Origin: Myxococcota bacterium
GTDB lineage: Bacteria > Myxococcota > Kuafuiibacteriia > Kuafuiibacteriales > Kuafuiibacteriaceae
Reading direction: 5' to 3'
Length of the DNA: 64,000 bases
Assembly (NCBI GenBank): GCA_036788295.1
Contig: DAIQNR010000006.1
Location: 51,523 to 115,522, forward strand
The notes beneath the pieces were generated by a model. That model worked only from the letters and a program-made list of their open reading frames with translations, did not search any database and had not been told where the DNA came from. Both the position numbers and the translations under genes were made by a program. Below are positions 332 through 40,992 of the stretch, in pieces; within the stretch, counting starts at the first letter, position 1, and each line of letters begins with the position of its first letter.

Positions 332-597
332 CCGGCGAAGCTTTCGGGCGAGCCGGGCAAAATCAAGGCCGGTGACGCCAGACGCCGCGTTCGGGCTCGG
401 CGCGGGCCACGTTTTCGGCCGGAGGCGGAAGGGCCGACCCTCTCCGAGGTCTGGACACTTCTGCGACGGCGGCCCGGGCTGGTTCAGCCGTCATTCGAAC
501 GAGGGTCAGCCAGGGGTGTGACGCGGCGGAGGAGCGAGGCGAGGTCCAGGCCGGATCCTCGCCCCCGAGCGCCGAACCCCGTGGTACTCTGCCGCCC

Positions 598-1071
598 ATG
601 GCGGTGCAGCTGGTGATGTATGCAGAGGAGCACAGGCAGCTCCTCGCGGTCTCGGAGCGTCTGTGCCGGGAGGCCAACGCCCGGGTGGTGTTCATCATCG
701 ACAAGAACGGTCAGCTGCTCGCCTCGGGCGGGGACGTGAGCCGAATGGACAGCACCTCGCTCGCGTCCCTGGTCGCCGGGGAGATCGCCGCGACCGGTGG
801 GCTCGCCCAGCTCATGGGGGAGCGAGAGTTTTCGACCTTGTTTCACGAGGGGGTCAAGGAGCACCTCCACATCTCCATCATCGCGAGCCGGGTGATCCTC
901 GTCGTGATCTTCGACAGTCGGTCGAGCCTCGGGCTCGTTCGGCTGCGGGTCCGAAAGCAGTCCGAGGCGCTCGGACACATCGTCGAGGCGCTCGCTCGGC
1001 GCAGCGCCGAGCGGCCCACCGCGCTCGGCGAGATCACCGACGAAGACATCGACAACCTATTCTCGCTGTGA
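598..1071 (+). CDS. mglB: MglB, roadblock/LC7-domain GTPase-activating protein of MglA
   Basis: 157 aa. QLVMYAEE...VVFIIDKNGQLLASGG...HISIIASRVILVVIFDSRSSLGLVRLR...DIDNLFSL matches M. xanthus MglB almost colinearly. Lies immediately upstream of mglA. Confidence 0.9.
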   Translation: MAVQLVMYAEEHRQLLAVSERLCREANARVVFIIDKNGQLLASGGDVSRMDSTSLASLVAGEIAATGGLAQLMGEREFSTLFHEGVKEHLHISIIASRVILVVIFDSRSSLGLVRLRVRKQSEALGHIVEALARRSAERPTALGEITDEDIDNLFSL

Positions 1072-25364: not shown

Positions 25365-26677
25365 CCCAGCTCCTCGAGCGCCTCGGTTGCGATGGTGGCC
25401 ATGACCGGAGGCAGCGGCAAGCGCAAGCTGGGCAGGCCAGGGCGATCGGAGAGCTCGGATAGGTCGAGCTCGAGGCCTTCTCGGAGCCTTCCTCGGCCCT
25501 GATCTTCCACCACCACGACCGGGTGAAAGGCGAGCTCCGGGTGGGGCTCGATCACACGAACCCGCTCGCCGGTGCTCAGCTCGGCCTCGGTGTCGGCGGG
25601 GACCGCATCCACCAGCCGAGCCAGCCGCTCGAGCAGGTAGGGGTTCAATCCGACCGCCCGCCGCTGAAGCCACGCGATCGAGGCGCCGGCGCTGGATCGA
25701 TGGTGCAGAGCCAAGGTCCGAAGTCCATCGAACTGATCGGCGAGCTTGGTCAGCTCGACCGCGAGCAGGCCCGGAGCGCCGTCCTGCAGCGGCGTGTGGT
25801 GACCGAAGGCGACGACGGCGCCGAGCCGAGCGCCGGCTTCGAGCAGGAGGCGACCCCCTTCGAGCGTGTGGCGGTCGAGCCAGGCCCGCTCCGACGGGGT
25901 GAGCGGGGCCTGCTTGTCGAGAATCGCCGGCGGGATCCGGGTCTTTCCGAGGTCGTGGGTCAACCCGGCGGTCACGAGGCTCTGCACATCGTCTTCGTCG
26001 AGCCCGAGCGTCCGCGCCTGTGCGCCGACCAAGCAAGCGACATTGACCGAGTGGACGAGCTGCCGGTCGTCCCGATCCTTGAGCGCAGCGAGCGCACAGA
26101 GCGGCAACTCAGGTTTCAGCAAGTTGTCCATCAGCGCCTGCGCGAGCCGGGAGAACGCAATCTCGCTGGGGGGCTTGCCGGCGCCGCTCGCCGCGAAGAG
26201 GCTCCCGAGCTCCCGGGTCGCCTGCCGGTAGACCGAACGAAAGTCCTGTGCGGTGGCCCGCTCGTCGAGCTGCAGGTGCCGAAGCTGGATGCGCTCGACA
26301 CCTCTGCGCCCGAGCCACTGCGAAGATGACTCTCCGGCCAGCTCCGCCTCCGTCGCCGACAGGAGGTCGAGCAGCACCTCGACCTCGGAACGCTCGACCC
26401 CGGGAGCGAACGCGACCACTTCGAGCCCGAGCGCGAGCAGCCGCTCGGCGAGCCGGCGGGCGGCCACCGGAGGCTTCGGCAGCAGCACCCCGTCCACCGC
26501 GAGATGGTCGGCCAGCACCCCGATCGTCAACTGCGGTCTGCCGTCGAGGCATCGCCGGATGGCGGCGTGCACGGAGGCCGCGGCCCGGCGGGCGGCCTCG
26601 GCGCCCGGGGCATAGATGCGACGGCTGCGCCACGCCCCAGCGAGCAGGAGGCCGGCGTCGCGGTGGGTCTCATCCAT
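25361..26677 (-). CDS. HD-domain protein related to HD-GYP phosphodiesterases, with degenerate GYP motif
   Basis: 438 aa. HSVNVACL...LTHDLGK (HD), LTPSERAWLDRHTLEGGRLL, FGHHTPLQDGAPG (HHExxDGxGYP degraded to HHTPLQDGAPG). Long N-terminal helical region. Start overlaps the upstream gene end by 8 nt. Confidence 0.7.
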   Translation of the reverse strand: MDETHRDAGLLLAGAWRSRRIYAPGAEAARRAAASVHAAIRRCLDGRPQLTIGVLADHLAVDGVLLPKPPVAARRLAERLLALGLEVVAFAPGVERSEVEVLLDLLSATEAELAGESSSQWLGRRGVERIQLRHLQLDERATAQDFRSVYRQATRELGSLFAASGAGKPPSEIAFSRLAQALMDNLLKPELPLCALAALKDRDDRQLVHSVNVACLVGAQARTLGLDEDDVQSLVTAGLTHDLGKTRIPPAILDKQAPLTPSERAWLDRHTLEGGRLLLEAGARLGAVVAFGHHTPLQDGAPGLLAVELTKLADQFDGLRTLALHHRSSAGASIAWLQRRAVGLNPYLLERLARLVDAVPADTEAELSTGERVRVIEPHPELAFHPVVVVEDQGRGRLREGLELDLSELSDRPGLPSLRLPLPPVMATIATEALEELG

Positions 26678-28718
26678 GTCCGATGGCCTCGAGCGCTCGG
26701 CGGGCGGCGCGGTGGCGGCGGGCCCGCTCGATCAGGACCTTGGCGCTCGGGGAAGGATGATGGACGAGCGCGCGAGCGGCGGCGAGGCGGACCGCCTCGA
26801 CCGGCCCCGACGAGAGGAGGGGGGCCGGCCGGACCAGGAGGTGGCCGAGGTAGGCGAGGGCGAGGCCTCCGTCGGAGTGACCGAGCGCCTCGACCGCGAG
26901 CAGGGCGACCCGATCGCTGAGCCCGTCCTCTTCCGGCCCCGCTCGGAGCAGCCGGCGAATGGGCCCAGGGCCCTTCAGGCCGGCGATGAGACCGACGAGC
27001 TTGAGGCCTGACCCACGGGGCGCCCGGACCAGCGCGTCGATCACGAGTCCGATGTCTTCCCTACGCACGGTGGCGAGTGCGCGCCGCGCGACCTCGAGGC
27101 CCTCCGGGCTGCCGGTAGCGAGCGTGGCTTCGAGCGCGGCCGCGAGCCGGTGGGGACCGAGCGGGCCAAACCCTCCGGCGATGAGCTCGGCGAACGACTC
27201 CGGGGGCAGGCGACGCATGGTGGATCGCAAGTGCAATTGCTGCTGGGGCCCGAATCGGTGGAGTGCGCCGAGCAGGAGCGCGGCTCGCACCGAGTTCGGG
27301 GTCCGAGGGTCCCGGACGAGGCGGGGGAGGCGAGCGAGCCCGCTGGGGCGGTCGACCGCGACCCGTAGCAGCGGCCGCAGCTCCCTGGAATCTCCAGCCC
27401 GGCGGGCGATCTCCAGCTGCACCGGGAGCCCCGCATCCCGGATGCCTTCGTCCTCGAGCGCCTGGGCGAGTCCGAGCGCGTCCTCGGCGAGCTCGGCGCT
27501 GACGGGGCCGTCGGCGGCGAGCAGCGCGCCGTACACCGCGAGCAGCGGCTCTCGGACCAACCTCTTGTCCAGGGTGTGAAGGACGTCTTGCCCAAGAACC
27601 GGGCGGCTCTCCCACCGCCTCCGCAGTTCAGCTTGCCGAATGAGCCCAGGGTAGGAGCCCGGGTCGGTCAGCTCGGCGATCCCGTGCCGCTCGTCGCCGA
27701 GGGTTCGCGCCTCGAGCGACTGCCACAACAGCCCGTCGATGGGGCGCCCCCGGGCGCTCGACGCGCGGTCCACTTGCGCGAGCAGACGCCGCCGGGCGCC
27801 GAGCACCGGCCTCAGCCGGCCGAGGAGACGGCCGACCGCCTTCGCGACCGCCTCGCTGCTGTCTTCGAGCAGCGCGCTGGCGATGGCGTCCACCACCGTG
27901 CCGTCGTCGATGGACGGCCCCAGCGCGGACAGGAGGTCCGAGCCTTCCACTTCGGAGAGGCGCCGCAAGAGCTCGAAGCGGGCTTCGGGGGCGAGGCGGG
28001 CGAGCGCATCGGCGAGCCGGGCCGCGCCCTCTCCGAGGTCGGCCCTGGCCCCAGCATGCAGGCGAAACGCCTCCGCGCCCGCGTCCGCGATCTCGTCCCT
28101 TCCGGCGCGCCCGTCCTCGGCCCGCTCGATGAGGTCCTCGAGAAACTTCCCGAGGCCGTCCGGGTCCCGGACCGACTCGAAGCGGACCGGGATCGGTTCA
28201 CCGCCCCGGCCGAAGCGGATCACGGTGCGGAGCCCCCGCTCGAGCACCGGATCCTCCCTGGCCGCCGGAGGCAAGCGGGCCACGGCGCCGTCGAAGAGCC
28301 CGGCGAAGTCCACGGAGATGAGCTCGAGGCCGGGGCTCTCCAGCTGGTCGAGCCGGGCCGATTCATTCGGCTCGGGAGGCGCGGAGAGGGCGTCGATCAC
28401 GGCGAGGAAGCGGTCTGGGTCGACCCGTCGGTCGAGGCGGATCCCGAGCAGCCCGCGGCGGAGCATGGTCCGGGCGAGCGCGGCGGCCGCGCCCTCCGCT
28501 CGAGCCGGTCCGTCTCGGTCGACGAACAGGCTGCTGCCTCCGGTGGCGAGCGAGAGCCGCCCGGGGTCGGCCCGAAACCGCTCCTCGAGCGCGGTCCGGA
28601 CCTCCTGCCGGGCCTCGACGCACACCGGATGGCTGGGCGCGTAGTAGGCGAGCGCCTGCGCCGCTCGGCCGAGCGCGGACAGAAGCCTCTCGCTCACGAA
28701 AGACCCTCCACCACCCAC
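26670..28718 (-). CDS. Large uncharacterised protein with C-terminal HEAT/PBS-lyase-like repeats (682 aa)
   Basis: Protein-like, diverse composition. C-terminal LLAVEALGHSDGGLALAYLGHLL...AVRLAAARALVHH repeats. Start may be downstream of 28718, which overlaps the preceding gene by 25 nt. Confidence 0.55.
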   Translation of the reverse strand: MGGGGSFVSERLLSALGRAAQALAYYAPSHPVCVEARQEVRTALEERFRADPGRLSLATGGSSLFVDRDGPARAEGAAAALARTMLRRGLLGIRLDRRVDPDRFLAVIDALSAPPEPNESARLDQLESPGLELISVDFAGLFDGAVARLPPAAREDPVLERGLRTVIRFGRGGEPIPVRFESVRDPDGLGKFLEDLIERAEDGRAGRDEIADAGAEAFRLHAGARADLGEGAARLADALARLAPEARFELLRRLSEVEGSDLLSALGPSIDDGTVVDAIASALLEDSSEAVAKAVGRLLGRLRPVLGARRRLLAQVDRASSARGRPIDGLLWQSLEARTLGDERHGIAELTDPGSYPGLIRQAELRRRWESRPVLGQDVLHTLDKRLVREPLLAVYGALLAADGPVSAELAEDALGLAQALEDEGIRDAGLPVQLEIARRAGDSRELRPLLRVAVDRPSGLARLPRLVRDPRTPNSVRAALLLGALHRFGPQQQLHLRSTMRRLPPESFAELIAGGFGPLGPHRLAAALEATLATGSPEGLEVARRALATVRREDIGLVIDALVRAPRGSGLKLVGLIAGLKGPGPIRRLLRAGPEEDGLSDRVALLAVEALGHSDGGLALAYLGHLLVRPAPLLSSGPVEAVRLAAARALVHHPSPSAKVLIERARRHRAARRALEAIGHG

Positions 28719-30577
28719 GTCGCCGGCCCGGCCGGCGCCAGGCGCACCGGCTTCGCGTCGAGCCCGGCGAGCATCGGGGCCTGCGCATCACCGAGCGCAT
28801 CGACCCCCGGGCATCGGCGGAGCGCGGACAAGACGTCCTCCCCGAGCACCAGACCGGGCGCTTCGGTCAGCAGGACGAGGCGGGGCGGGACGGACAAGAG
28901 CCCGGTTCGCCGCCGCTCCCGCCCGAGCTGCGCCCACCGCTGAGCGTGCTCGGCCCTCGCCGATGCCCGCAGCCATGGGAGCGAGAGGCCACGGTCCGCG
29001 GGGCCCGAGGCGAGGCCGATCCCCACCGCGAGCAGCAGTCCTGGAGGGCTCGACGCCTCGACGAGGGCGTCCACGCCTCGCTCCGGATCTTCGGCTGCCG
29101 CTTCGAGCAGGTCGGGGAGGTCTTCGGACCCGATCGGCGGGGGGAGCGCCCGATGAAGAGCCGCTTCTGCCTCGCGCCTCAGCCGCTGCCAGCCGAATGC
29201 GAGCACCGCGAGCGCATCCACCGGACCGGTAGCGGCGACTCGGTCCGGGCCAGCCGGGACCGTCTCGACTCCGGGCTGCTGCTTCGCCAGGTCGCGCGCT
29301 GGTGCGAGCAATACCGCCTGCATGGTCTCTAGCACGACCGAAGCCGAGGGTCCCATGAGGTCCGCTCCGTGCATGGTGAGGAGCAAGACACCTTGCTCGG
29401 TAGGCCGGGCCCGGCTGAGCAGCGGGCGACCGATCTCGAGTTCGAGCGCGGGACGGCGCCGGTCCGCTACAGCTCGCAGGCGGGCGGCCAGCCGCTCGTC
29501 GAGCCGGAGGACCAGGGCCCCGAGCGCGGCGAGCACGGCTCGACGCTCCCGCTGCTCCTCGGACGGAGGGGGGGCCTCGAGCTGCTGCAGGAGGGCCTGG
29601 GCGAGCGGATGGGGGAGACCGCGGAGCGCCTCGAGGAGCCGGGCTCGCCTGGGGGTCTCGGCGACGGCCGCGAGCAGGGCCCGAGGATCCCTCAAGACAT
29701 CGGCCACCGGCGCCGACGCTCGCGGACGGGGGCTCGACCGCTCCGCCTCCCTTCCCGCTCCGCTCCCTGGATGAAGCGAATCCTGCACCGCCGACACCGC
29801 GATCGCTGCGTCTCGCACCCGCTCGGCGGTGACCGCGCGGTCGAGGTGGTCCCGCTCCCGGTCTTCGACGAGCAGGCGCTCGGCCAGGGCGTCGGCGGCG
29901 TCCTTCAGTCGCACCGGCTCATCGCTCGCCCCGTCGATCACCCGGCGGGCGAGGGCGAGCGCCGCCGGGGTGGTGCGATAGTTGTTCACCAGGCGCCCCG
30001 CGATCCGGTCCGGGTCGGCGCCGAGCGACACCGGTGACGGGACGAGCGCGAGGGCCCGGGCCAGGCGGCCGCTGCCTTCGACCGGCTCCCGGTCGAGCCA
30101 CGCGGCGGTGTCGGCCCGGAGCATCAGGTCGAACAGGACCCGGCGCTCGATGCCGGCGGCCCGGAGCCGGTCGGCGAGCCCGGTCACAAAACCGCTCCAT
30201 CCGAGCAGGGCCGCTTCTGTCCCCCGGTGCCCGGACTTCTCCGCTTCGAGGACGCGGAGCAGCACCTCGGGGAGCACCTGGCCGAGCTTCGACCCCGGGC
30301 CGCCGAGAAAAGCGAGCGCGTCCGCCGGGTGCACTCCGGCGTCGGCCTGGGCGAGCCGCATCGCGCGGCGCATCGCGCCCGGTTCGGGCGTCGATCCCAA
30401 GTCCCGGCCGAAGTCGGCGGCGAGCCGGTCGAGCTCGGCTCCGAGCCGAGGGCCAAGTTCGACCGAGCCGGGGAAGCGAACCGAGTCGGGGAGGAGCAGG
30501 TCGAGCCCGCCGCGGTGAAGCGTCGACTCGAAACCTCGCGCCCGGGCCCCGACCCACGCCTCGCAGGTGGGTAGCAC
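28694..30577 (-). CDS. Large uncharacterised helical protein (627 aa), first gene of the operon
   Basis: Long ORF with no recognisable catalytic motif. Contiguous and co-oriented with the next four genes. Divergent intergenic region upstream of the 30577 start (30578-30713). Confidence 0.5.
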   Translation of the reverse strand: MLPTCEAWVGARARGFESTLHRGGLDLLLPDSVRFPGSVELGPRLGAELDRLAADFGRDLGSTPEPGAMRRAMRLAQADAGVHPADALAFLGGPGSKLGQVLPEVLLRVLEAEKSGHRGTEAALLGWSGFVTGLADRLRAAGIERRVLFDLMLRADTAAWLDREPVEGSGRLARALALVPSPVSLGADPDRIAGRLVNNYRTTPAALALARRVIDGASDEPVRLKDAADALAERLLVEDRERDHLDRAVTAERVRDAAIAVSAVQDSLHPGSGAGREAERSSPRPRASAPVADVLRDPRALLAAVAETPRRARLLEALRGLPHPLAQALLQQLEAPPPSEEQRERRAVLAALGALVLRLDERLAARLRAVADRRRPALELEIGRPLLSRARPTEQGVLLLTMHGADLMGPSASVVLETMQAVLLAPARDLAKQQPGVETVPAGPDRVAATGPVDALAVLAFGWQRLRREAEAALHRALPPPIGSEDLPDLLEAAAEDPERGVDALVEASSPPGLLLAVGIGLASGPADRGLSLPWLRASARAEHAQRWAQLGRERRRTGLLSVPPRLVLLTEAPGLVLGEDVLSALRRCPGVDALGDAQAPMLAGLDAKPVRLAPAGPATWVVEGLS

Positions 30578-30713
30578 CCCGCTACCCTACGTCCGGACGC
30601 CAAGGTCCGGAAGTCGGGTCCGCGCCGCCCGGTGCGCAAGCGCCGAGACCCCCGGTCCGGGGGGACAGGTTGGGGGAAAGAGCGAGGATGCCGGCGCGGA
30701 AGCCCCTCCTTTT

Positions 30714-31343
30714 TTGATCTTGAATTTCAGTCGCAATAGCGAAACCGTCCCGGCGCTCGTGCTGGTCGCCGGTGCCATCTTCGTTCTCCTCGGGCAGGCG
30801 GGCCTCTACGCCCTCTGGCCGTCGCCGGACCTGCGGCCGCTTCGGCGATTTCGGCCCGGCGCCGCGGCCGGCAGCGTGGGGCTCGTCGTCGCTGGGGGCG
30901 CGACCGCCGCGCTGGCGGGTGGAGTCACCGGGCTCCTCCTCGTCCTTGCTGCAGCGATGGTCGGCGGGCCGGTCCTCGTGCTCGCCGCGCCGCTCCTCCT
31001 GCGCCTACCAACCGCCCCCGAAGGCGCAGCCCGCCGGGGACGGCTCCGCCACCGGTGGACGACTGGGGAAGGCTGGGTGAAGGCGGTGGCCTCCCTGGTG
31101 GGTGGGTTTGCCGTCTTCGTTCTCACCTGCCTCTGGTTTCCGCTCGTTCTCCCCGAGCTCGGGCTGTCGATGGAGGCGGCGCTCGCTCTGGCTACGCTGC
31201 TCGCGCTCCCGGGTTGGGTGGGTTTGACCTTTGCCTGCCTCTGCGCACGCCGCCCGCTCGGAGCCGTGGCATGGGTTTTGGTGTCCACGCTCGTGCTCGG
31301 GGTTTCTGCCCTCCTCCCCGCGCTCTCGAGGGGCCCGACGTGA
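30714..31343 (+). CDS. Polytopic membrane protein (about 5 TM helices); start uncertain (TTG 30714 or GTG 30762)
   Basis: Hydrophobic segments VPALVLVAGAIFVLLGQAGLYALW, GLLLVLAAAMVGGPVLVLAAPLLL, FAVFVLTCLWFPLVL, LATLLALPGWVGLTFACL, VAWVLVSTLVLGVSALL. Stop overlaps the GTG start of the PepSY gene (GTGA). Confidence 0.5.
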   Translation: MILNFSRNSETVPALVLVAGAIFVLLGQAGLYALWPSPDLRPLRRFRPGAAAGSVGLVVAGGATAALAGGVTGLLLVLAAAMVGGPVLVLAAPLLLRLPTAPEGAARRGRLRHRWTTGEGWVKAVASLVGGFAVFVLTCLWFPLVLPELGLSMEAALALATLLALPGWVGLTFACLCARRPLGAVAWVLVSTLVLGVSALLPALSRGPT

Positions 31344-32862
31344 AGGTCCTCGGCGCCCGGCTCACCCGAATCTTCTGGGATGCGCACGCCGTCATCGGTG
31401 TCTCGTGCAGTCTCGCCCTCTTCGTGATGTTCTACGCTGGGGCCTACACCCTGTACCGGGGCGAGCTCGGGGCTTGGATCGACCCGTCGCTTCGAAGCCA
31501 CGGCAGTTCCGCAAGTCTCGCCGGCGTGGCCGCGCTGCTCGAGCGGCACCCGCCGGACCGGGGGAGCCACGTGCCCTCGTCCATCCATTCGGTGACCGGG
31601 CCTACTACTTCGTCCGGTACGACCACGAGGGCGAAAAGCTCGAGCGCCGCGTGGGCGCATTCGATGGCGCCGCACATCCCCGGGACGGAAGAAGCGCGCT
31701 CCCCGAGCTGCTCCATGACCTCCACTACTTTCGGCAACTGGGCGAGCCGGGGCGGGTCGCGTCTGGGATCGTCGCGCTGTTCGGGGTCGTCGTCCTCCTG
31801 TCCGGGCTGCTCCTTCACTGGGACAAGCTCCCGCGGAGGCTCCATGGCTTTCGGACCCACCGAGGCTGGCGCTGGTGGGTCACCGACGCCCACACGACGT
31901 TGGGGGTCTTGGGCATCCCGTACACGTTGATGTATTGTCTGACCGGCGCCTTCTTCGGGCTTCTCGTCGTGATCCTCGGGCCGACCGCCTTGGTCGTCTT
32001 TGGCGGGGATACCGAGGCGGTCGAGCAGCATCTCACCGGTGTGCGGACGCCCGAACCGGCCCCTCTTGGCGCCGAAGGGCCTTTGCCTGACCTCGGTGAG
32101 GTCGTACGCTGGGTCGAGCAGCGCTGGGGTTCGGACATCGTGCTCTTTCGGACCGATGTCATCGACTGGGGGGACCGTTCCGCAAAATGGGTGGTGGAAG
32201 GGGCACACGCCAAAACTCTCGCCACGTCGGGCAAGGTGGTGGCGAGCGTCGCCACCATGGAGGTCCTGGACGAGCAGCGACCAGAGGAGGCGAACATTCT
32301 GGGCCGCACCATCTCGGTGATCACGAACCTTCATTTCTCACGACTCGGGCACCCGGCCTTCGACGCGCTGTTCTTCCTCTTGGCGCTTCTATCCTGCGCG
32401 GTGATCCTGACCGGCAACGTGCTGTGGCTGTCCGGCCGCTCCCCGTTTCGGCTCGACGCCGGGCGGTGGCTCGACCGCGGGCTCGGCCGAGCCACGATCG
32501 GCGTCGCCCTGGGCCTCGTGGTCGCGGTGCCGGCGGCGCTCACCCTCACCCGGCTCATCCCGCTCGACAGCGCCGGGCGAGCGGCCATCGAGAGCGCGTT
32601 CTTCTTCTCCACATGGCTCGGCATCTCTCTTTTCGCTCTCTCCGTGAGGGATCCACTTCGATTGGGGAAGACGCTGCTCGGCCTCGCCGCCTTCTTTCAC
32701 TTCGCTGCTCCGGCCCTGAACGCCGCGATGACGGCTCGGCCCTTCTCCGACTTCGCGACCCTCAGCGTCGATGTTGGCCTCGTCTCGGGTGGGGCCCTGT
32801 GCTTCGCCCTGCGCCGCATCGTCGCGACGAGCCCGGACCACCCAAGGAGTTCGATCCCATGA
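31340..32862 (+). pseudogene. PepSY-associated TM helix protein (PiuB/XusC-like), disrupted by a -1 frameshift near 31560
   Basis: N-terminus VKVLGARLTRIFWDAHAVIGVSCSLALFVMFYAGAYTLYRGELGAW (PepSY_TM TM1) is in the 31055 track frame. The continuation ...EPRALVHPFGDRAYYFVRYDHEGEKLERRVGAFDGA...LHDLHYFRQLGEPGRVASGIVALFGVVVLLSGLLLHW (TM2) and the rest are in the 31231 frame. Adding one G to the G5 run at about 31561-31565 restores a single ORF. Confidence 0.7.
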
Positions 32863-34112
32863 AAAAAACCTCCATCCAGTGCGCATTGCTCGCCGGCTTC
32901 GTTTTCGCCGCCTGCGGGGACGACAGCATCGGGGACCAGGCCGACGCGGCCATATCCGGCGCCGACGCCGGCGCTCGAGACGGAGGTGCCCCCGACGGCG
33001 GCAGCGCCGATCTGGGGGTCGAAGTCGCACGGCGGTACGCGCTGATGATTCGAATCCGTCAGCCCGACGGGACCACCAACGCGACCTACCTCGAGACCCG
33101 GCAAAACCTCGATCCCTCGGAGCTCATCACCACCCGGAACGCGCGGGAGTTTGCCGCGCAGCTGCGCTTCGCGCGGTTCGAAGACGCGATCTTTCTCGAG
33201 GACGTCCGACAACCCACGCTCGCCCGCCTCGACTACGAAAGATCAACCGGGACCTTCACCGAAGGTCCGGTCCTGTCGTTTCAGCCTCGCGGGCTGACCT
33301 CGGTCCGGGCCCACTTCCTCTCCGCGACCAAGGGGTACGCCATCGATGGAGCCGGGTCGACCATCGCGAACTTCGACCCCGCCGCCATGGAGCTGCGCCC
33401 GGGCACCATCGACATCTCGGCTCAAAGACCCCAGGGCTCGGAGATCGACCTGCTGCTCGTGGTCACCCGCGGCAACCGGACGTTCGTCTCCCTCGCCTAC
33501 ACCAACCTCGACAACCCCGTCATGCCCACCATCGAGCCCGCGATCATCGTCGCGGTCATCGACAACCAGACCGATGCGCTCATCGCCTACCGCCGGGACG
33601 AGCGGTGCGGTCACGCGAGCGGCATGGTGCTGACCCCCACCGGAGACATCTATATTCACGGCGACAACGGCTTCAACGTGATCGACATGAGCCGCAGGGC
33701 GCGCATCGTCCGCATCCCGGCCGGGCAGGAGACATTCGATGACTACTTCTGGCAGCCCGCCGAGGCCCTGGGCGGACGGGAGAGCTCCCGCCTCACCCAC
33801 GCCGGTGGCGCCCGCGCGGTGACGTTTGCGTTGTATCCAGAGCGGCTCAACTTGCAAAACCCTCTCTCCGTCGTATTGGACCCGGTCCGCCGCCCATGGC
33901 TTGTAGACCTCGAGGCCCAGACCGCGACCGAGCTCTCCGATGTGCCCTTCACGAAGACGGGGATCCCATACTTGGTGGACGGGAGCCTCTGGCTCGGTTT
34001 GTCGCAGAGCTTCGACGCCACGGACATCTACAGCGTCGATCCTGTCACCGCCGCAGCGACGCTCGAGGCGCAGAGCGAAGGCCAGGTGTTCTCCGTGACC
34101 CGGCTACCGTGA
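32859..34112 (+). CDS. Surface lipoprotein, candidate siderophore-binding beta-propeller (XusB/DUF4374-like)
   Basis: 417 aa from ATG 32859 (AAGGAG RBS 8 nt upstream; ATGA overlap with the PepSY stop). MKKTSIQCALLAGFVFAACGDD lipobox. Sits between a PepSY-TM gene and a TonB-dependent receptor. Family assignment is by context and size only. Confidence 0.5.
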   Translation: MKKTSIQCALLAGFVFAACGDDSIGDQADAAISGADAGARDGGAPDGGSADLGVEVARRYALMIRIRQPDGTTNATYLETRQNLDPSELITTRNAREFAAQLRFARFEDAIFLEDVRQPTLARLDYERSTGTFTEGPVLSFQPRGLTSVRAHFLSATKGYAIDGAGSTIANFDPAAMELRPGTIDISAQRPQGSEIDLLLVVTRGNRTFVSLAYTNLDNPVMPTIEPAIIVAVIDNQTDALIAYRRDERCGHASGMVLTPTGDIYIHGDNGFNVIDMSRRARIVRIPAGQETFDDYFWQPAEALGGRESSRLTHAGGARAVTFALYPERLNLQNPLSVVLDPVRRPWLVDLEAQTATELSDVPFTKTGIPYLVDGSLWLGLSQSFDATDIYSVDPVTAAATLEAQSEGQVFSVTRLP

Positions 34113-34131
34113 CGAAGGGCGACGCTGTCGG

Positions 34132-36270
34132 ATGCGCGCTCTCTCCTTGGCGATGGCCCCTCTTGCTGTCGCCGTCGCCCAATCCGCCTCCGCCGCCGGG
34201 ACCTCGACCACGACGGTGGATGTAGTCCGGGTCACAGGTAAGCGGTTGTCGGAAGAGCAGAAGGCGATCGAGCGCGCCGCCGCGCTCGATGTGGTCGATC
34301 TATCCGGGGAAGCGATGCGCTCGGTGGACATGGGCACCATTCTGCGGCGCACCCGAGGGGTTGTCCTGCGGCAGACTGGGGGCCTTGGGTCGGCGACCAC
34401 CCTCAGCCTGAACGGGCTGTCCGGTCGGCAAGTCCCCATCTTTCTCGACGGATTGCCGATCGAGCTGTCCGGCTTCTCCACGAATCTCTCCGCGGTGCCC
34501 GTGGGTTTGGTGAGCAAGCTCGAGATCCACAAGGGCGTCGTCCCGGTCGAGCTGGCGAGCGACGCGCTCGGCGGCGCCATCGACCTTCGAACCAGGGAGG
34601 GGCGCCGCCCCCGTGCCTTCGTCAGCTATGAGAATGCCTCCTTCGCTACCCATCGGGCCCTGTTCGACGTCCATACGGGCACCGATTCCATCTATGGGTC
34701 GATTCAGGGCTGGTACGACCGGTCGGCCAACGACTATCGGATCACGGTCGACGCGGTCGACGCCGATACCGGGCGTCTCGTCCGCGATGGACTCGTCGTA
34801 GCGAAGAACAACGCTGATTTCGAGAGCTTCGGCGTCAGCGCGGAGGCCGGTCTCGAGAGGCTCCTCTTCGCCGACCGGCTCGCTGTCCGCGGCTTCGTTG
34901 GGGCCTCGACCCAAGGTCTTCCTCACGACGTCACCCAGGAGACCGCCTACGGGGAAGTTCAGACCGGGCTCGATGCCGCTGGCGGATGGCTCCGCTACGA
35001 GAAGTATGGGATCTTGGAGCGGCTCGACATCGATTTGGCCGTGGGTTTGGTCAGGCGGGCGAATCGACTGTCGGACCTCGCCGAGAGCCGCTACGACTTC
35101 GAAGGCAATCGTACCGCGCCCATCCGAGGCGAGCTGGTGTCCGGGGGCATAGACCAGACCCTCGACGAGTGGCTGGTCTCGGGCCGGCTCAACCTCAGCT
35201 ATCGCCTCACCGACGAGCATGGCCTCGTCCTCACCGCCGCCCCCCAGTGGGAACGACGGAGCGGCGCGCGGCGGGCGCCCGATGAGGACGCAAGCGAAGC
35301 GCGGCCGATCCCACAAGATGACATCCGGTCCCTGGTGGGTGGGCTCGCTCATCGGTGGCGGCCCTTCGACCTTCCCATGGAGAACGACCTGTTCTTCAAG
35401 GTCTACGCGTACGAAGCCCGTGGCGAGGAGGTTCTGCTGGGGTTCAGCGCGGGGCGGTTCTCGAGCGACACCCTCGACGTCGGCGTGGGGGACGCATGGG
35501 TCTTTCGGGCCGGCGACGCGGTGATCGTTCGAGCTTCGGGGGAGTGGGCGACTCGGCTGCCGGACTTCACGGAGATCATGGGGGACGCGGTCCTCGAGAG
35601 CGGCAACCCGGAGCTTCGCCCGGAGCGGAGCCTCAACCTGAATCTCTCCGTCTCAGCGTTGGAGGTCCCCACCGCGGTCGGTACCTTTGGCGGCACGCTC
35701 TGGGGATTTTCGAGGCTCGCCGAGGATCTCATCCAGGTCGAGACCGGGGGCGGAAGGTCTCGGTACGTCAACGTAGACAGCGCGATCATCTATGGTCTCG
35801 AGACCGACGCGCAGTGGTCGAGCCCCGGGGATTGGGTCCGCGTGAGCGGGACCTTCACGTGGGAGGAGACGAGGAATACATCGCTCGAGGGAGCCTACGA
35901 GCGGTTTCGGGACGATCGCCTCCCGAACCGGCCCTACCTCTACGGTTCGGCCGCCGTCAGCGTCGGGGGGCGCAGCCTCCTGTTTGGCGGCGACGAGGCC
36001 CGCCTGAGCGGCCACGGCCTGTGGGTGCACGAGTTCTTCCGCCTGTGGCCGAGCGCGGGGGCGCTCGAGACGAAGGCGGTGATCCCCGAGCAAATCCGGG
36101 TCGACGTAGACCTCTTGTACACCTTTTTGGCCCCTTTCGACCGTCGGACACGGGTGGGGGTGAGCTTCGAGTGCCGAAACCTGCTCGACGACCGCCTGTT
36201 CGACCGTCTCCGAGCCGAGCTCCCCGGCCGGTCGCTCCATTTCAAGGTGTCGGGGTCGTTCGAAGACTGA
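34132..36270 (+). CDS. TonB-dependent outer-membrane receptor
   Basis: 712 aa. Signal peptide MRALSLAMAPLAVAVAQSASA. Plug domain ATTLSLNGLSGRQVPIFLDGLPIE. Long beta-barrel with a C-terminal aromatic-rich end. Confidence 0.8.
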   Translation: MRALSLAMAPLAVAVAQSASAAGTSTTTVDVVRVTGKRLSEEQKAIERAAALDVVDLSGEAMRSVDMGTILRRTRGVVLRQTGGLGSATTLSLNGLSGRQVPIFLDGLPIELSGFSTNLSAVPVGLVSKLEIHKGVVPVELASDALGGAIDLRTREGRRPRAFVSYENASFATHRALFDVHTGTDSIYGSIQGWYDRSANDYRITVDAVDADTGRLVRDGLVVAKNNADFESFGVSAEAGLERLLFADRLAVRGFVGASTQGLPHDVTQETAYGEVQTGLDAAGGWLRYEKYGILERLDIDLAVGLVRRANRLSDLAESRYDFEGNRTAPIRGELVSGGIDQTLDEWLVSGRLNLSYRLTDEHGLVLTAAPQWERRSGARRAPDEDASEARPIPQDDIRSLVGGLAHRWRPFDLPMENDLFFKVYAYEARGEEVLLGFSAGRFSSDTLDVGVGDAWVFRAGDAVIVRASGEWATRLPDFTEIMGDAVLESGNPELRPERSLNLNLSVSALEVPTAVGTFGGTLWGFSRLAEDLIQVETGGGRSRYVNVDSAIIYGLETDAQWSSPGDWVRVSGTFTWEETRNTSLEGAYERFRDDRLPNRPYLYGSAAVSVGGRSLLFGGDEARLSGHGLWVHEFFRLWPSAGALETKAVIPEQIRVDVDLLYTFLAPFDRRTRVGVSFECRNLLDDRLFDRLRAELPGRSLHFKVSGSFED

Positions 36271-36285
36271 GCGGACCTTCGTCGT

Positions 36286-37296
36286 TCACCAGCCCGACCG
36301 CCAGACGTGCTGGGTGAGGGCTGCCATGTATTGAGCGCGCTCGAACGCGGAGGGGTCGGGGCTGTTGACTTGGCTGAGCGAGCCCTTCATCTGCTCGACC
36401 GATTCGTACTCCCGCTCGGTGAGCCAGGCCGAGAGGTCGCTCGAGACCTTGGCTGCGTGGCCGGGGCCGTGGCGGAGCAAGGCCGAAGTCATCATGGTGA
36501 CATCGGCGCCGGCGAGCAGGAGCTTCACCACGTCGCTGGCTTGGTGCACCCCGCTCGTGGCCGCGAGGTCCACCGAGACCCGCCCCTTGAGCAGCGCGAT
36601 CCACCGCAGCGGCAGCCGCATCTCCTCCGCCGAGGACAGGGTGAGCCGCGGCTCGACCGCGAGGTGGTCGAGGTCGATGTCGGGCTGGAGGAACCGGTTG
36701 AACAGGACGAGACCGCTGGCCCCGTTCTCCGCGAGCTGAAGCGCGAAGTGCCCCGGGCTGCTGTAGAACGGCGAGAGCTTCACGGCGAGCGGCAGCTGGG
36801 TCTGGGCCCGGACCTGCCGCACGAGCGCGACGACGTCCCGCTCGACCTCTATGCCCGGCCGAGTGACATCGGCGGGAACGGTGTAGACGTTGAGCTCGAG
36901 CGCGTCGGCACCCGCTTCTTCCACCTTGCGGGCGTGAAGCACCCACCCGCCTTGGGTATGTCCGTTGAGGCTCGCGATGACCGGGATGGACAGGGCCGCT
37001 TTCGCCGCCGCGATCAGCTCGAGCTGCTCGTCGCTGCGGCGCTTCATCTGGTGCATGTCGGGGAAGTAGCCGCCGGCCGCCTCCCCGAAGGTCTCGGCGC
37101 CGATGCGCTGAGCCCGAAACAGCTCCGCCTCCTCATGCTCGATCTGTTCTTCGAAGATCGAAGGCAGCACCACCGCCGATAGGCCGGCGTCTTCGAGCCG
37201 ACGCAGGGTGTCCACGTTTCCGGTGAGCGGGCCGCAGCTCGCCACCAAGGGGCTTTTCAGGGGCAAGCCCAGCCACCGGGTCGATAGATCCATCAT
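36286..37296 (-). CDS. Dihydroorotate dehydrogenase-like (DHOD family, class 1-type) protein coupled to PFOR
   Basis: 337 aa from ATG 37296 (ATGA overlap with the PFOR stop). LKSPLVASCGPLTGNVDTL...ELNVYTVP...LAVKLSPF... TIM-barrel DHOD/DHPD family features. Confidence 0.7.
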   Translation of the reverse strand: MMDLSTRWLGLPLKSPLVASCGPLTGNVDTLRRLEDAGLSAVVLPSIFEEQIEHEEAELFRAQRIGAETFGEAAGGYFPDMHQMKRRSDEQLELIAAAKAALSIPVIASLNGHTQGGWVLHARKVEEAGADALELNVYTVPADVTRPGIEVERDVVALVRQVRAQTQLPLAVKLSPFYSSPGHFALQLAENGASGLVLFNRFLQPDIDLDHLAVEPRLTLSSAEEMRLPLRWIALLKGRVSVDLAATSGVHQASDVVKLLLAGADVTMMTSALLRHGPGHAAKVSSDLSAWLTEREYESVEQMKGSLSQVNSPDPSAFERAQYMAALTQHVWRSGW

Positions 37297-40200
37297 CCTT
37301 GTTCCTCGGTCACGGTGTGGCGCTCGAGCCCGGCGAGCTGCTCGTAGTAGCTCCACCGCTCGTCGATGTCCTTTTGGGCGAGCACGGCGAGCCTCGAGGC
37401 GCGCTCGGGGTCGGCGCGCTGAAGCATCGCGTACCGAGCCTCCTTTTCGGCGTAGGTCTTGAACGGCCGGCTCGGCTTTTTGCTGTCGAGCTGAAAGGGG
37501 TGGGCGTCGGTGTCCGAGTGCCGGGGGTCGAACCGGTACAGCGGCCAGTGCCCGACCGCCTCGGCCTCCTTCATGTGCGACATCGACGTGCTCATGTCGA
37601 TGCCGTGCGCGATGCAGGTGGCGTAGGCGATGACGAGCGAGACGCCGGGGTAGGATGCGGCCTCGCGCATGGCCTGAAGGGTCTGCTTCATGTTTGCGCC
37701 GAGCGCGATCTGGGCCACGTATACGTTGCCGTACCCCATCGCGATCATGCCGAGGTCCTTCTTGCCGATCGGCTTGCCGGCGGCGGCGAACTTGGCGACC
37801 GCGCCCCGGGGCGTGGCCTTCGAGGCCTGGCCGCCGGTGTTCGAATAGACCTCGGTGTCGAGCACCAGGATGTTCAGATCCTCCCCGGAGGTGAGCACGT
37901 GGTCGAGGCCGCCGAAGCCGATGTCATAGGCCCAGCCGTCGCCGCCCACGATCCAGACGCTCTTTGGGACCAGGTGATCGGCGAGCCCGCTCAGCCGCCT
38001 CGCCTCCGCCGATGGGTTCGTGCTGAGTTGGCGCTTCAGCTCGGCGACCGCCTCGCGGCGGCCGGCGATCGCCGGCTCGTCGAGGATCGGGGCCGGGGCA
38101 CGGAGCGCGGCCACGAGCGCGCCCGGGATGGCCAAAGACGGATCGGTGAGCAGGGCCTCCGCGTGCAGGCTCTGCTGCTTCAGCGCGAGCCGCATCCCGA
38201 GCCCGAATTCGGCGTTGTCCTCGAACAGGGAGTTCGACCACGCCGGGCCCCGGCCGGCGCTGTCCTGCGACCACGGGGTGGTGGGGAGGTTGCCGCCGAA
38301 GATCGACGAGCACCCGGTGGCGTTCGCGACGACGGCCCGATCCCCGAGGAGCTGGGTCATGAGCTTCAGGTACGGGGTCTCTCCGCAGCCGGCGCACGCC
38401 CCAGAGTACTCGAACAGGGGCTCGGCGAGCTGGCTGCCCTTGACCGTCTCGAGCCGGACTTTTGTCCGGTCGGCGGCGGGCTGGGCGAGGAAAGCCTCGA
38501 ACCGGGGACGCTCCCGCTCGATGTGCTCGTCCTTGGGAGACATGTCGATCGCCTTGTGCTTGGCCACCGACTTGCTCTTTGCCGGGCAGACGTCCACGCA
38601 AACCCCGCAGCCGGTGCAGTCGTCAGGGGCGACCTGAACCATGAACTTCAGGTCGGGGCCGATGAGTTCTTTGCCCCGGTAGGGCACGGCGCCGAGCGCG
38701 GTGACCTCGTCCGAGTTCGGGAAAGCTTTGGTCCGGATGGCGGCGTGGGGGCAAACGAGCGCGCAGAACCCACACTGGATGCAGATGTCCGAATCCCAGA
38801 TCGGGATCTCGAGCGCGATGCTCCGCTTCTCGTACTGGGCCGTCCCGGTAGGAAAGGCCCCGTCCACGGGCAGGGCGGACACCGGCAGCTTGTCACCGTC
38901 GCCGCGAATGATGGCGCCGGTGACCCGGGTCACGAAGTCCGGAGCGGACGGGGGCACCGCCGGGCGCAGGCGGATCTCGGAGGTGATCGAGAGCGGGACC
39001 TTCACCTCGTGGAGGTGGGCGAGCGCGGCGTCCACTGCGGTGACGTTGGCATCGAGCACCCTCTGGCCCGACTTCTTGTACGTCTTCTCGATCGACCTCT
39101 TGATGGCGGCGATCGCCTCGTCTCTCGGCAAAGCCCCAAAGAGGGCGAAGAAGCAGGTCTGCATCACCGTGTTGATCCGGCCGGCGAGCCCCGCCTCCTC
39201 GGCGACCGCGACCGCGTCGATGACGAACAGCCGCAGCTTCTTCTCGAGGATGGCCCGCTGCACTTCTTCGGGCAGCTTGTCCCAAACGATTTCGGCGCCG
39301 TGCGGGGAGTTCAACAGGAACGTGGCTCCTTCGGCGGCCAAAGACAGCACGTCCCGCTGCTCGAGAAAGTTGAACTGGTGGCAGGCCACGAACTGCGCCG
39401 ACTGCACGAGGTAGGTGGACTCGATGGGGCGGGGAGAGAAGCGCAGGTGGGATACCGTCACCGCGCCCGACTTCTTCGAGTCGTAGACGAAGTATCCCTG
39501 GGCGTGGAGGTCCGTCTCTTCGCCGATGATCTTCACCGAGTTCTTGTTCGCGCCCACCGTTCCGTCGGCCCCGAGTCCGTAGAAGACCGCGCGGACGACA
39601 TCCGAGGGCTCGATCTCGGGCGCCTTGTCGTAGTTGATGCTCAAGTGGGTGACGTCATCGACGATGCCCACCGTGAACCCATTCCGGGGCATGGTCTGGC
39701 GCAGCTCCGAGAACACGCCGGTCGCCATTCGCGGCGTGAACTCTTTCGAGGAGAGGCCGTAGCGGCCGCCCACGACCTCGGGCACCGTCTGCCGCAAACC
39801 CTGCCGACGGGCTTCGCTCAGCGCAGCCAGAACGTCGAGGTAGAGCGGCTCGCCGGGGGCGCCGGGCTCCTTCGTGCGGTCGAGCACCGCCACCTTGCGA
39901 ACCGATGGGGGCAGGGCGTCGAGCAGCCCCTTCATCGAGAACGGCCGAAACAGGCGCACGCCCACCACGCCGACCCGCTCGCCAACCTCCACCATGCGCC
40001 GGACCGCCTCGCGGGCGGCGCCGAGGCCCGAACCCATCATGACGATGACCTGATCCGGCTCGGGGTGTCCGTCGTAGTCGAACAGCCGCATGCTCCGGCC
40101 GGTCTGCTCCGACAGGCGCTTCATGGCCGACTCGATGATGCCCGGGGTTTGGAGGTAGTAGGGGTTGCACGCTTCCCTCGCCTGGAAGAACACGTCCGGG

Positions 40201-40862
40201 TTTTGGGCGGTGCCGCGCAGGCTCGGGTGGTCGGGGCTGAGCGACCGCGCTCGGTGCCGCTCGATGGCGGCCTCGTCGAGCATCGAGCGAATCACCGCGT
40301 CGGGGATGACCTCGACCCCGTTGACCTCGTGGGACGTCCGAAACCCATCGAAGATGTGGAGGAACGGCACCCGCGCGTGCAGGGTGGCGGCGTGGGCGAC
40401 CAGGGCCTGGTCGTGCGCTTCCTGCACCGACGACGAGAACAGCATCCCGAAGCCCGAGGCGCGGGTCGCCATGACGTCGGCGTGATCGCCGAAGATCGAC
40501 AGCGCGTGGGTCGCGAGCGCCCGGGCGGCCACATGGATGACCGCCGGGGTGAGCTCCCCGGCGATCTTGTACATGTTCGGGATCATGAGCAGGAGGCCCT
40601 GCGAGGACGTGAACGTCGTGGTCAGCGCCCCCGCGGACAGCGCGCCGTGCACCGTGCCCGCGGCCCCGCCTTCGCTCTGCATCTCCACCACCCGGGGAAC
40701 CTGGCCGAACACGTTCTTTCGTCGGGCCGAGGCCCAGTCGTCGGACAGCTCACCCATGGGAGAGGCGGGGGTGATGGGATAGATGGCCACGACCTCGCTC
40801 GCCGCGTAGGCGATGCGGGCCGCGGCCTCGTTGCCGTCCATGAGAACGTGCGTCTTTGGCAT
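37293..40862 (-). CDS. nifJ: Pyruvate:ferredoxin (flavodoxin) oxidoreductase, single-chain PFOR
   Basis: 1189 aa from ATG 40862: MPKTHVLMDGNEAAARIAYAASEVVAIYPITPASPMGE. Two 4Fe-4S ferredoxin motifs (CIQCGFCALVCPHAAI, CTGCGVCVDVCP). TPP-binding GGDGWAYDIG. Confidence 0.9.
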   Translation of the reverse strand: MPKTHVLMDGNEAAARIAYAASEVVAIYPITPASPMGELSDDWASARRKNVFGQVPRVVEMQSEGGAAGTVHGALSAGALTTTFTSSQGLLLMIPNMYKIAGELTPAVIHVAARALATHALSIFGDHADVMATRASGFGMLFSSSVQEAHDQALVAHAATLHARVPFLHIFDGFRTSHEVNGVEVIPDAVIRSMLDEAAIERHRARSLSPDHPSLRGTAQNPDVFFQAREACNPYYLQTPGIIESAMKRLSEQTGRSMRLFDYDGHPEPDQVIVMMGSGLGAAREAVRRMVEVGERVGVVGVRLFRPFSMKGLLDALPPSVRKVAVLDRTKEPGAPGEPLYLDVLAALSEARRQGLRQTVPEVVGGRYGLSSKEFTPRMATGVFSELRQTMPRNGFTVGIVDDVTHLSINYDKAPEIEPSDVVRAVFYGLGADGTVGANKNSVKIIGEETDLHAQGYFVYDSKKSGAVTVSHLRFSPRPIESTYLVQSAQFVACHQFNFLEQRDVLSLAAEGATFLLNSPHGAEIVWDKLPEEVQRAILEKKLRLFVIDAVAVAEEAGLAGRINTVMQTCFFALFGALPRDEAIAAIKRSIEKTYKKSGQRVLDANVTAVDAALAHLHEVKVPLSITSEIRLRPAVPPSAPDFVTRVTGAIIRGDGDKLPVSALPVDGAFPTGTAQYEKRSIALEIPIWDSDICIQCGFCALVCPHAAIRTKAFPNSDEVTALGAVPYRGKELIGPDLKFMVQVAPDDCTGCGVCVDVCPAKSKSVAKHKAIDMSPKDEHIERERPRFEAFLAQPAADRTKVRLETVKGSQLAEPLFEYSGACAGCGETPYLKLMTQLLGDRAVVANATGCSSIFGGNLPTTPWSQDSAGRGPAWSNSLFEDNAEFGLGMRLALKQQSLHAEALLTDPSLAIPGALVAALRAPAPILDEPAIAGRREAVAELKRQLSTNPSAEARRLSGLADHLVPKSVWIVGGDGWAYDIGFGGLDHVLTSGEDLNILVLDTEVYSNTGGQASKATPRGAVAKFAAAGKPIGKKDLGMIAMGYGNVYVAQIALGANMKQTLQAMREAASYPGVSLVIAYATCIAHGIDMSTSMSHMKEAEAVGHWPLYRFDPRHSDTDAHPFQLDSKKPSRPFKTYAEKEARYAMLQRADPERASRLAVLAQKDIDERWSYYEQLAGLERHTVTEEQG

Positions 40863-40992
40863 TGTCCGCCGACTGTGCAAACGGTGGTCCAATGCGATTT
40901 CACCGTTCTCGAGGCCCGAGGGCGCACCGAACGGTAACTCTTTGCGGGGTGACAACCGAGCGAGGGGACGAAGATGCGTAGATACCCTTATA

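Follow-up and report, generated by a model that had tools for sequence, protein, structure and literature searches.

In the published model of the Xus systems of Bacteroides, ferric siderophores are captured by a surface lipoprotein that also serves as the lid of a TonB-dependent transporter (TBDT); after import driven by TonB, the iron is reduced in the periplasm by a PepSY protein (PMC13142918). A hook insertion has been proposed as the mark of lipoproteins of the XusB type that bind catecholates, and the hookless type has been tied to hydroxamates (PMC13142918). Reductases of the PepSY kind are also known from other uptake systems. FoxB of Pseudomonas aeruginosa is a reductase of ferric siderophores in which two b-haems are bound by all four transmembrane (TM) helices (10.1101/2021.01.28.428567). 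In Caulobacter some substrates require, besides the PepSY reductase, a small membrane protein called HiuC, for which binding to the reductase is predicted (PMC12424826). Published accounts treat Xus and other pairs of a lid and a TBDT as essentially restricted to Bacteroidota, and our literature search turned up no report of Xus-like systems in myxobacteria. Here we analysed 64,000 nucleotides of a Myxococcota bacterium (assembly GCA_036788295.1, contig DAIQNR010000006.1, positions 51,523 to 115,522 of the forward strand; the whole stretch is referred to as the window), in which a first-pass annotation made from the sequence alone had placed a Xus-like locus for the uptake of xenosiderophores.

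We consider it likely that this locus is an iron-regulated operon for ferric siderophore uptake, composed of a gene 1 followed by xusC-like, xusB-like and xusA-like genes, and that the reductase step is probably compromised in this genome. The component families of such a system are known, and DUF4374 tags are already present in automated annotation of Myxococcota; what sets this locus apart is its phylum, its gene order and an extra conserved gene.

Gene layout and the upstream element

Four genes lie on the forward strand, as seen from the listing of open reading frames (ORFs) and from codon-position GC analysis. Gene 1 (30759..31343) encodes a predicted polytopic inner-membrane protein of 194 amino acids (aa). 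It is followed by the PepSY_TM gene (31340..32862), which encodes a putative di-haem ferric-siderophore reductase of the XusC/FoxB type and is interrupted here, by the gene for a XusB-like (DUF4374) lipoprotein of 417 aa (32859..34112), and by the gene for a XusA/MxcH-like TBDT of 712 aa (34132..36270), called the receptor below. The stop codon of gene 1 and the GTG start of the PepSY_TM gene overlap in the sequence GTGA at 31340-31343, and the end of the PepSY_TM gene and the ATG of the lipoprotein gene overlap in ATGA at 32859-32862. A gap of 19 nt separates the lipoprotein stop codon (34112) from the receptor ATG (34132), and the receptor stop codon ends at 36270. Such tight packing suggests a single transcript and translational coupling. 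The first-pass annotation had named the same gene set, order and end coordinate, and had described the first three genes as coupled by the two overlaps; the gene set, order, overlaps and end coordinate were borne out. Its start, a TTG at 30714, was not, as it falls within an AT-rich, operator-like element. Alignment with the orthologues and an independent Logan gene call both place the start of gene 1 at the GTG at 30759.

A Fur-box-like element, TTTTTTGATCTTGAATTTCAGTCGCAATAGCG, lies on the forward strand at 30708..30740, directly ahead of gene 1; a check for Fur boxes upstream had been proposed for this locus. The element is a putative operator or promoter. It has a core motif, TTGAATTTCAGTCGCA, at 30720-30735 and a GC content of about 33% inside a region of about 72% GC (67-75% in the surrounding DNA generally). 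Compared with the E. coli consensus, it matches the 19-bp form at 12 of 19 positions and the 7-1-7 form at 10 of 14. Comparable AT-rich elements lie ahead of the first cassette gene on the related contigs L006, L008, L009 and L003, and the elements of the five lineages match the 19-bp consensus at 12-14 positions, equally well at 6-bp shifts. The pattern TTGNNNNTNNNTC[TG]CA occurred five times when 161 kb were scanned on both strands; all five sites, one in the window and one on each of the four contigs, lie on the coding strand upstream of the first cassette gene. Fur control of the cassette may reasonably be inferred from these matches, although it does not amount to a result.

A scan for the sigma-70 consensus found no promoter, a lone 'terminator' match at 30759 was within chance expectation, and an Rfam scan of the window found nothing. 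Two ORFs upstream are divergent from the cassette (26670-28718, 682 aa, and 28694-30577, 627 aa, both on the reverse strand) and share with it the intergenic region of about 180 bp that holds the Fur-like element. Their first-position GC is 0.83-0.84, they have no match in Pfam or NCBIfam, and they are not conserved beside the cassette in L006 or L008.

The lipoprotein and the receptor

The product of the third gene has a signal peptide with the lipobox F-A-A-C19, in which Cys19 is invariant among the homologues, and the lipid-bearing cysteine is followed by a disordered acidic and glycine-rich linker (CGDD...) of about 35 aa. Searched against the PDB with phmmer, the lipoprotein retrieved XusB (9hqe, E = 3.4e-6) and four further DUF4374 chains. 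A profile built from the lipoprotein and five homologues reached the XusB of B. fragilis (BfXusB) at E = 3.2e-10 and that of B. thetaiotaomicron (BtXusB) at about 2e-4, and precomputed matches to PF14298.14, a model now named XusB, cover the lipoprotein and all its homologues. An AlphaFold2 model (predicted local distance difference test score, pLDDT, 78; predicted template modelling score, pTM, 0.78) showed a disordered stretch at residues 1-55 and then about 27 strands, which fits seven blades and the earlier suggestion of a beta-propeller. When this model was compared with the PDB using Foldseek, the six best matches were all BfXusB chains, in both apo and ferrichrome-bound forms (E 8e-19 to 3e-17, template modelling scores 0.71/0.78). 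Lids for vitamin B12 of the BtuG type came next, some seven orders of magnitude behind (E about 1e-11, scores about 0.55/0.67), and BtXusB gave a partial alignment only (E 2e-8). The comparison with DUF4374 and XusB and the structure prediction had both been recommended as checks, and the two together point to a distant but genuine XusB/DUF4374 homologue.

The mature propeller has about 360 aa, and the only loops modelled with low confidence, at 273-275 and 328-340, are short. Because no long insertion is present in the model, the predicted seven-bladed propeller is assigned to the hookless BfXusB type and not to the hook subclass of BtXusB. Nothing that we ran supports enterobactin or salmochelin as ligands, or the foreign nature of the siderophore, as the first-pass annotation had it.

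The segment behind the lipid-bearing cysteine (32913-33020, residues 19-55) has the family consensus C-G-D-D-D. At least two Asp or Glu residues are found at positions +2 to +7 in 76 of the 111 relatives with a detectable lipobox, and Lys and Arg are almost absent. The segment resembles lipoprotein surface-export signals of Bacteroidota, for example CSDDDPVNP of a XusB homologue (10.1101/2023.03.17.533168), a likeness read from XusB-family relatives alone. We infer that the lipoprotein is exposed at the cell surface.

The receptor has a signal peptide, a TonB-box-like motif (VDVVRVTG) and the Pfam Plug and barrel domains. In a phmmer search of the PDB its only full-length match was XusA (9gbc_A) from the cryo-electron microscopy structure of the XusAB complex (E = 9.1e-55, residues 27-707 aligned with 108-790); other TBDTs in the PDB matched at most in the plug, as with the plug of BtuB (E = 1e-10). 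The best NCBIfam model was that of MxcH (NF038079; 576.4 bits, E = 8e-173, profile positions 98-788 of 792). The score lies below the equivalog cutoff of 925, and the receptor is by this measure a related paralogue or subfamily member, not an equivalog. Its homologues came first from Myxococcota, some of them named MxcH and 34-36% identical, and then from receptors with an N-terminal CarboxypepD_reg domain, a domain associated with TBDTs of Bacteroidota. As had been anticipated, the sequence matches group the receptor with siderophore transporters, in a XusA/MxcH clade. In several receptor homologues (L009:3836-6259, P0179, P0183 and P0186) a TonB_C domain (PF03544) was found N-terminal to the Plug and barrel domains, which is an unusual arrangement of a fusion with a TBDT.

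The reductase gene and gene 1

The PepSY_TM gene does not form a single ORF. Its span of 1523 nt (31340..32862) is not a multiple of 3; codons 1-78 (31340 to 31573) and the remainder to 32862 are read in different frames. The frame from 31340 gives a convincing N-terminus (…RIFWDAHAVIGV…PPDRGSHV) through 78 codons and nonsense beyond, and the frame that ends at 32862 gives nonsense upstream of about 31575 and a good sequence downstream (…LVHPFGDRAYYFVRY…). A MAFFT alignment of the DNA with L006 located a single-base deletion on the forward strand at 31574..31577, where the window reads 'cgtgccc-tcgtcc' and L006 reads 'cgtgctcgtcgtcc'. The orthologues on two metagenomic contigs are intact, with 510 and 520 aa. 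The reconstructed protein of 507 aa matched PF03929 over positions 1-293 (139.6 bits, E = 2.6e-40). The family and place given for the PepSY_TM protein in the first-pass annotation therefore stood, while its reading as one gene product did not.

Membership in the PepSY_TM family is assigned by the Pfam match; a phmmer search of the protein against the PDB did not reach FoxB. His129, His160, His185 and His332 of the reconstructed sequence are invariant in five PepSY_TM homologues, and His16, in TM1, is kept in four of the five. By analogy with FoxB, these histidines would bind haem. The PepSY_TM proteins of this clade reach about 140 aa past the Pfam model (window residues about 365-507, about 32430-32860), and the hydrophobic segments in this C-terminal extension are conserved in L006, L008, L009 and L003.

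The Logan assembly of run SRR3311151 (contig L001) agreed with the window across 16.6 kb at 100% identity, the frameshift site included. Since the same site is seen in this separate assembly, a pure assembly artefact is unlikely as the cause of the deletion, but the same reads may underlie both assemblies. Programmed frameshifting was considered and rejected, as no slippery heptamer was seen at the site by eye and the orthologues are simply in frame. The PepSY_TM gene in this genome is thus either a pseudogene or a sequence error. The frameshift parts TM1, with its His16, from the rest of the protein; therefore the reductase as encoded is probably inactive.

The lipoprotein gene also differs from its relatives at a conserved position. 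Residue 282 is Arg (CGC, 33702-33704) in the window, whereas Cys is found at this position in 127 of 139 aligned relatives (91%), encoded by TGC in L006 and L008, and the window lipoprotein is the sole member of the 139 with Arg. Cys250, conserved in 93% of the family, is retained. From the alignment it is the likely partner of Cys282, and Arg282 may represent a lost disulfide. In the alignment from the profile search BfXusB has neither cysteine, and the propeller fold is therefore not dependent on the pair.

Together, the frameshift and Arg282 suggest that selection on the locus may be relaxed in this genome. It is also possible, if somewhat doubtful, that the locus here is a decaying, non-functional remnant, with the reductase gene a pseudogene and the lipoprotein gathering damaging substitutions. 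A deletion that splits the gene after codon 78, with intact orthologues and the same sequence in a second assembly, is what such decay would produce, as is an Arg found in no other family member. However, the other three ORFs are intact and have a normal coding signature in third-position GC (GC3), and a lone indel in a metagenome-derived assembly may have arisen as an error of sequencing or of the consensus, or may represent a minority variant, the more so if the two assemblies come from the same reads. BfXusB, which has neither cysteine, likewise shows that the fold can do without the disulfide.

Gene 1 is a conserved and clade-specific fourth component of the cassette. Its family had four members among 5.8 billion proteins, all of them within this cassette, and an Arg-rich loop (R93, R95 and R97) is invariant in the family. 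Searches against Pfam and NCBIfam with the whole protein, with its halves and with all four homologues gave nothing usable at E<=10, and a plasmid collection searched for gene 1 and the lipoprotein gave no match. The AlphaFold2 model of gene 1 is all-helical and of low confidence (pLDDT 59). In Proteobacteria, proteins of the DUF3325 and DUF3649 families are encoded on either side of PepSY_TM genes, which makes these families a possible lead for gene 1. A 91-aa ORF between the receptor and XusB genes of L003 was considered as a homologue of gene 1 and was not counted, as the profile comparison was not significant (probability 1.4%).

Distribution, mechanism and relation to known systems

A word-based search for homologues of the lipoprotein found six. 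When 1.84 billion cluster representatives were searched exhaustively with a profile, 1128 matched at E<=1e-3, of which 706, being clusters at 50% identity, also passed E<=1e-10. All nine matches with a named organism are from Myxococcota, namely metagenome-assembled genomes (MAGs) of Myxococcota, Myxococcales and Sandaracinaceae and the species Pendulispora rubella (P0023); two of the nine are already labelled 'DUF4374 domain-containing protein'. In three longer proteins, P0038 (901 aa), P0030 (611 aa) and P0117 (555 aa), the XusB-like propeller is confined to the C-terminal part, which suggests fusions with N-terminal domains of other kinds.

Gene neighbourhoods were compared in 11 distinct lineages; a first metagenome scan gave no related loci and a second gave two, and an alignment of 35 sequences was too divergent to seed such a scan. 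The four-gene order of the window (gene 1, PepSY_TM, XusB, receptor) recurs in L006 and L008. L009 contains XusB, PepSY_TM, a gene 1 homologue and a receptor. A Myxococcota MAG (L003/L004/L011) follows the order known from Bacteroides, with the receptor, the 91-aa ORF, XusB and PepSY_TM in turn, and L013 contains a receptor and XusB. In a Myxococcales MAG (GCA_049841135, L014:8769-17514) the gene for a XusB-family lipoprotein overlaps the start of a receptor gene annotated 'MxcH', and the pair is followed, in place of PepSY_TM, by Peripla_BP_2, two FecCD permeases and fragments of an ABC ATPase. The same outer-membrane pair is there joined to a different inner-membrane route. A further Myxococcota MAG (JBCDFZ010000036, L012:7623-11654) has three tandem XusB paralogues, one on the forward and two on the reverse strand, with no XusA-like receptor within the 12 kb retrieved around them. 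Overall, a XusB homologue stands beside a XusA/MxcH-like receptor in 8 of the 11 lineages; the pair of lipoprotein and receptor is therefore the conserved core of the cassette, and the reductase is a frequent third part.

These components can be arranged in a mechanism that follows the Xus model. Upon iron limitation, a Fur-family repressor would leave the AT-rich operator at about 30708-30740. The lipoprotein, acylated at Cys19 and held at the surface on its flexible acidic linker, would capture a ferric siderophore with its seven-bladed propeller and act as a lid on the transporter, and the XusA/MxcH-like transporter would then carry the complex into the periplasm. There the di-haem PepSY_TM protein, if it acts as FoxB does, would reduce Fe(III) so that Fe(II) is released. 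Gene 1, which is predicted to be translationally coupled to the reductase, may partner it as HiuC does HiuB in Caulobacter, an assignment made by analogy only, and Fe(II) would enter the cell through a transporter encoded elsewhere.

Several points weigh against siderophore uptake by an iron-regulated operon. Siderophore binding, surface exposure and the response to iron are predictions from sequence and from a model. The lipoprotein is only 16-18% identical to the solved XusB proteins, and the local Pfam model PF14298.12 (DUF4374) gave it 14.7 bits (E = 0.014), below the cutoff of 25. No relation of gene 1 to any family was detected, and the confidence of its model is low. The match of the window element to the Fur box (12/19) is no better than that of two other sites in the 64 kb, and the TTGNNNNTNNNTC[TG]CA motif was derived post hoc from the same five sites. 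With its PepSY_TM gene frameshifted and Cys282 lost, the system may be inactive in this organism. In addition, a distant DUF4374/TBDT pair of Echinicola affected fitness when lysine or tyrosine supplied the nitrogen, with no obvious iron phenotype (10.1101/2023.03.17.533168); distant DUF4374/TBDT members may therefore carry other cargo.

With regard to the ligand, the clues to its class point two ways: the hookless propeller is like that of the ferrichrome-binding BfXusB, and the receptor family includes the receptor for the catecholate myxochelin. The cassette could accordingly be imagined to import a catecholate, myxochelin-like siderophore of the organism's own, with the receptor as a functional MxcH. 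The best family match of the receptor is indeed MxcH (576 bits), and among the Myxococcota MAG receptors that bear this name, 34-36% identical to it, the one in L014 is preceded by a XusB-family lipoprotein. We nevertheless think this unlikely: the MxcH score is well under the equivalog cutoff, the lipoprotein is of the hookless type linked to hydroxamates (PMC13142918), and no siderophore biosynthesis or nonribosomal peptide synthetase (NRPS) families were found among the 29 other ORFs of the window. The absence of biosynthesis genes from these 64 kb is consistent with a stand-alone uptake cassette, and it agrees with the use of foreign siderophores without proving it. Uptake of a cargo other than iron, such as a copper chelate or another small nutrient, is very improbable. 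Copper operons that combine a TBDT such as CrtA with PepSY_TM are known (PMC12914433; PMC13038864), but neither a lipoprotein nor a Fur site is part of their description (PMC12914433), whereas this locus has a XusB homologue and a Fur-like motif. The non-iron phenotypes of the distant Echinicola pair notwithstanding, XusA is the sole full-length structural relative of the receptor, and the family model that fits the receptor best is that of a siderophore receptor.

The presence of conserved XusA/XusB(/XusC) cassettes in several Myxococcota lineages makes the assumption that they are a Bacteroidota-only system testable. A bolder proposal, which we hold tentatively and consider rather less than probable, is that lidded transporters of the Xus type are not a speciality of Bacteroidota but form a large Myxococcota family with a Bacteroidota-like acidic signal (C-G-D-D-D), one clade of which recruited gene 1 to partner the PepSY_TM reductase or to handle the released Fe(II). 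If true, the route by which lipoproteins are flipped to the cell surface would be shared by the two phyla or convergent between them, and gene 1 would fill the Fe(II)-handling step that lacks an assignment in Xus models. The cassette is also relevant to how predatory bacteria of soil and sediment compete for iron, and the intact orthologues in L006, L008 and Pendulispora rubella (P0023) are material for work on ligand and localization. For the genome studied here, the annotation 'Xus-like' is right and the reductase gene is broken.

Just downstream of the cassette, on the reverse strand, lie genes for a dihydroorotate-dehydrogenase-like protein (36286-37356; NF005741, 442 bits) and for a full-length pyruvate:ferredoxin oxidoreductase with iron-sulphur cluster domains (37293-40955; TIGR02176, 1674 bits). 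At the other end of the window, a Roadblock/LC7 protein (376-1068, forward strand) matched the model of MglB, a GTPase-activating protein, at 74 bits, below its cutoff. This is a weak pointer to a myxobacterial origin of the window, whose nearest named homologues all come from Myxococcota. The rest of the window encodes housekeeping functions (arginine decarboxylase, PcnB, glutaminase and rRNA methyltransferases) and polysaccharide synthesis (glycosyltransferases and a flippase). An island acquired by horizontal transfer was considered and rejected: the drop in GC content at 30.5 kb, from about 0.74 to about 0.67, is not specific to the cassette, as GC stays low far past it.

Among known systems, the BtuG-BtuB pair for B12 in Bacteroides also places a propeller lid at the surface on a TBDT and is the second-best structural class for the lipoprotein. 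Its match to the lipoprotein is, however, much weaker than that of XusB, the receptor matches BtuB in the plug only, and no cobalamin-related genes are present. MxcH (NF038079) is the best family-level match of the receptor and comes from the same phylum; unlike MxcH, the window receptor does not have the first 97 or so N-terminal profile positions, and there are no myxochelin biosynthesis genes nearby. The L014 receptor annotated as MxcH is also paired with XusB, but with an ABC importer (Peripla_BP_2, FecCD) and not with PepSY_TM. The cassette resembles FoxB of P. aeruginosa and HiuB-HiuC of Caulobacter (hiuABC) in that a PepSY_TM protein with conserved TM histidines is encoded together with a TBDT, in the proposed Fur-type regulatory site and, with respect to HiuC, in a small membrane protein encoded beside the reductase, although for gene 1 this likeness is positional only. 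Unlike the hiu and fox systems, which have none, it includes a lid lipoprotein, and the PepSY_TM proteins of this clade have the additional C-terminal membrane region of about 140 aa.

The closest parallel is XusABC of Bacteroides (XusA, the TBDT BT2065; XusB, the DUF4374 lipoprotein BT2064; XusC, the PepSY protein BT2063; BfXusB structures 9hqe and 9hqk). The myxobacterial cassette differs from it in phylum, in the extra conserved membrane gene upstream and, in this genome, in the frameshifted reductase gene. The window receptor does not have the N-terminal CarboxypepD_reg domain of its Bacteroidota relatives, and the probable Cys250-Cys282 pair typical of the myxobacterial lipoprotein family is not found in BfXusB. 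The first-pass annotation had described the locus as the Bacteroides XusABC component set; the gene order in this clade (reductase, lipoprotein, receptor) is reversed compared with Bacteroides, but all three component families are present together, adjacent and co-oriented, with a receptor homologous to XusA over its full length and a lipoprotein whose best match, in structure as in sequence, is BfXusB.

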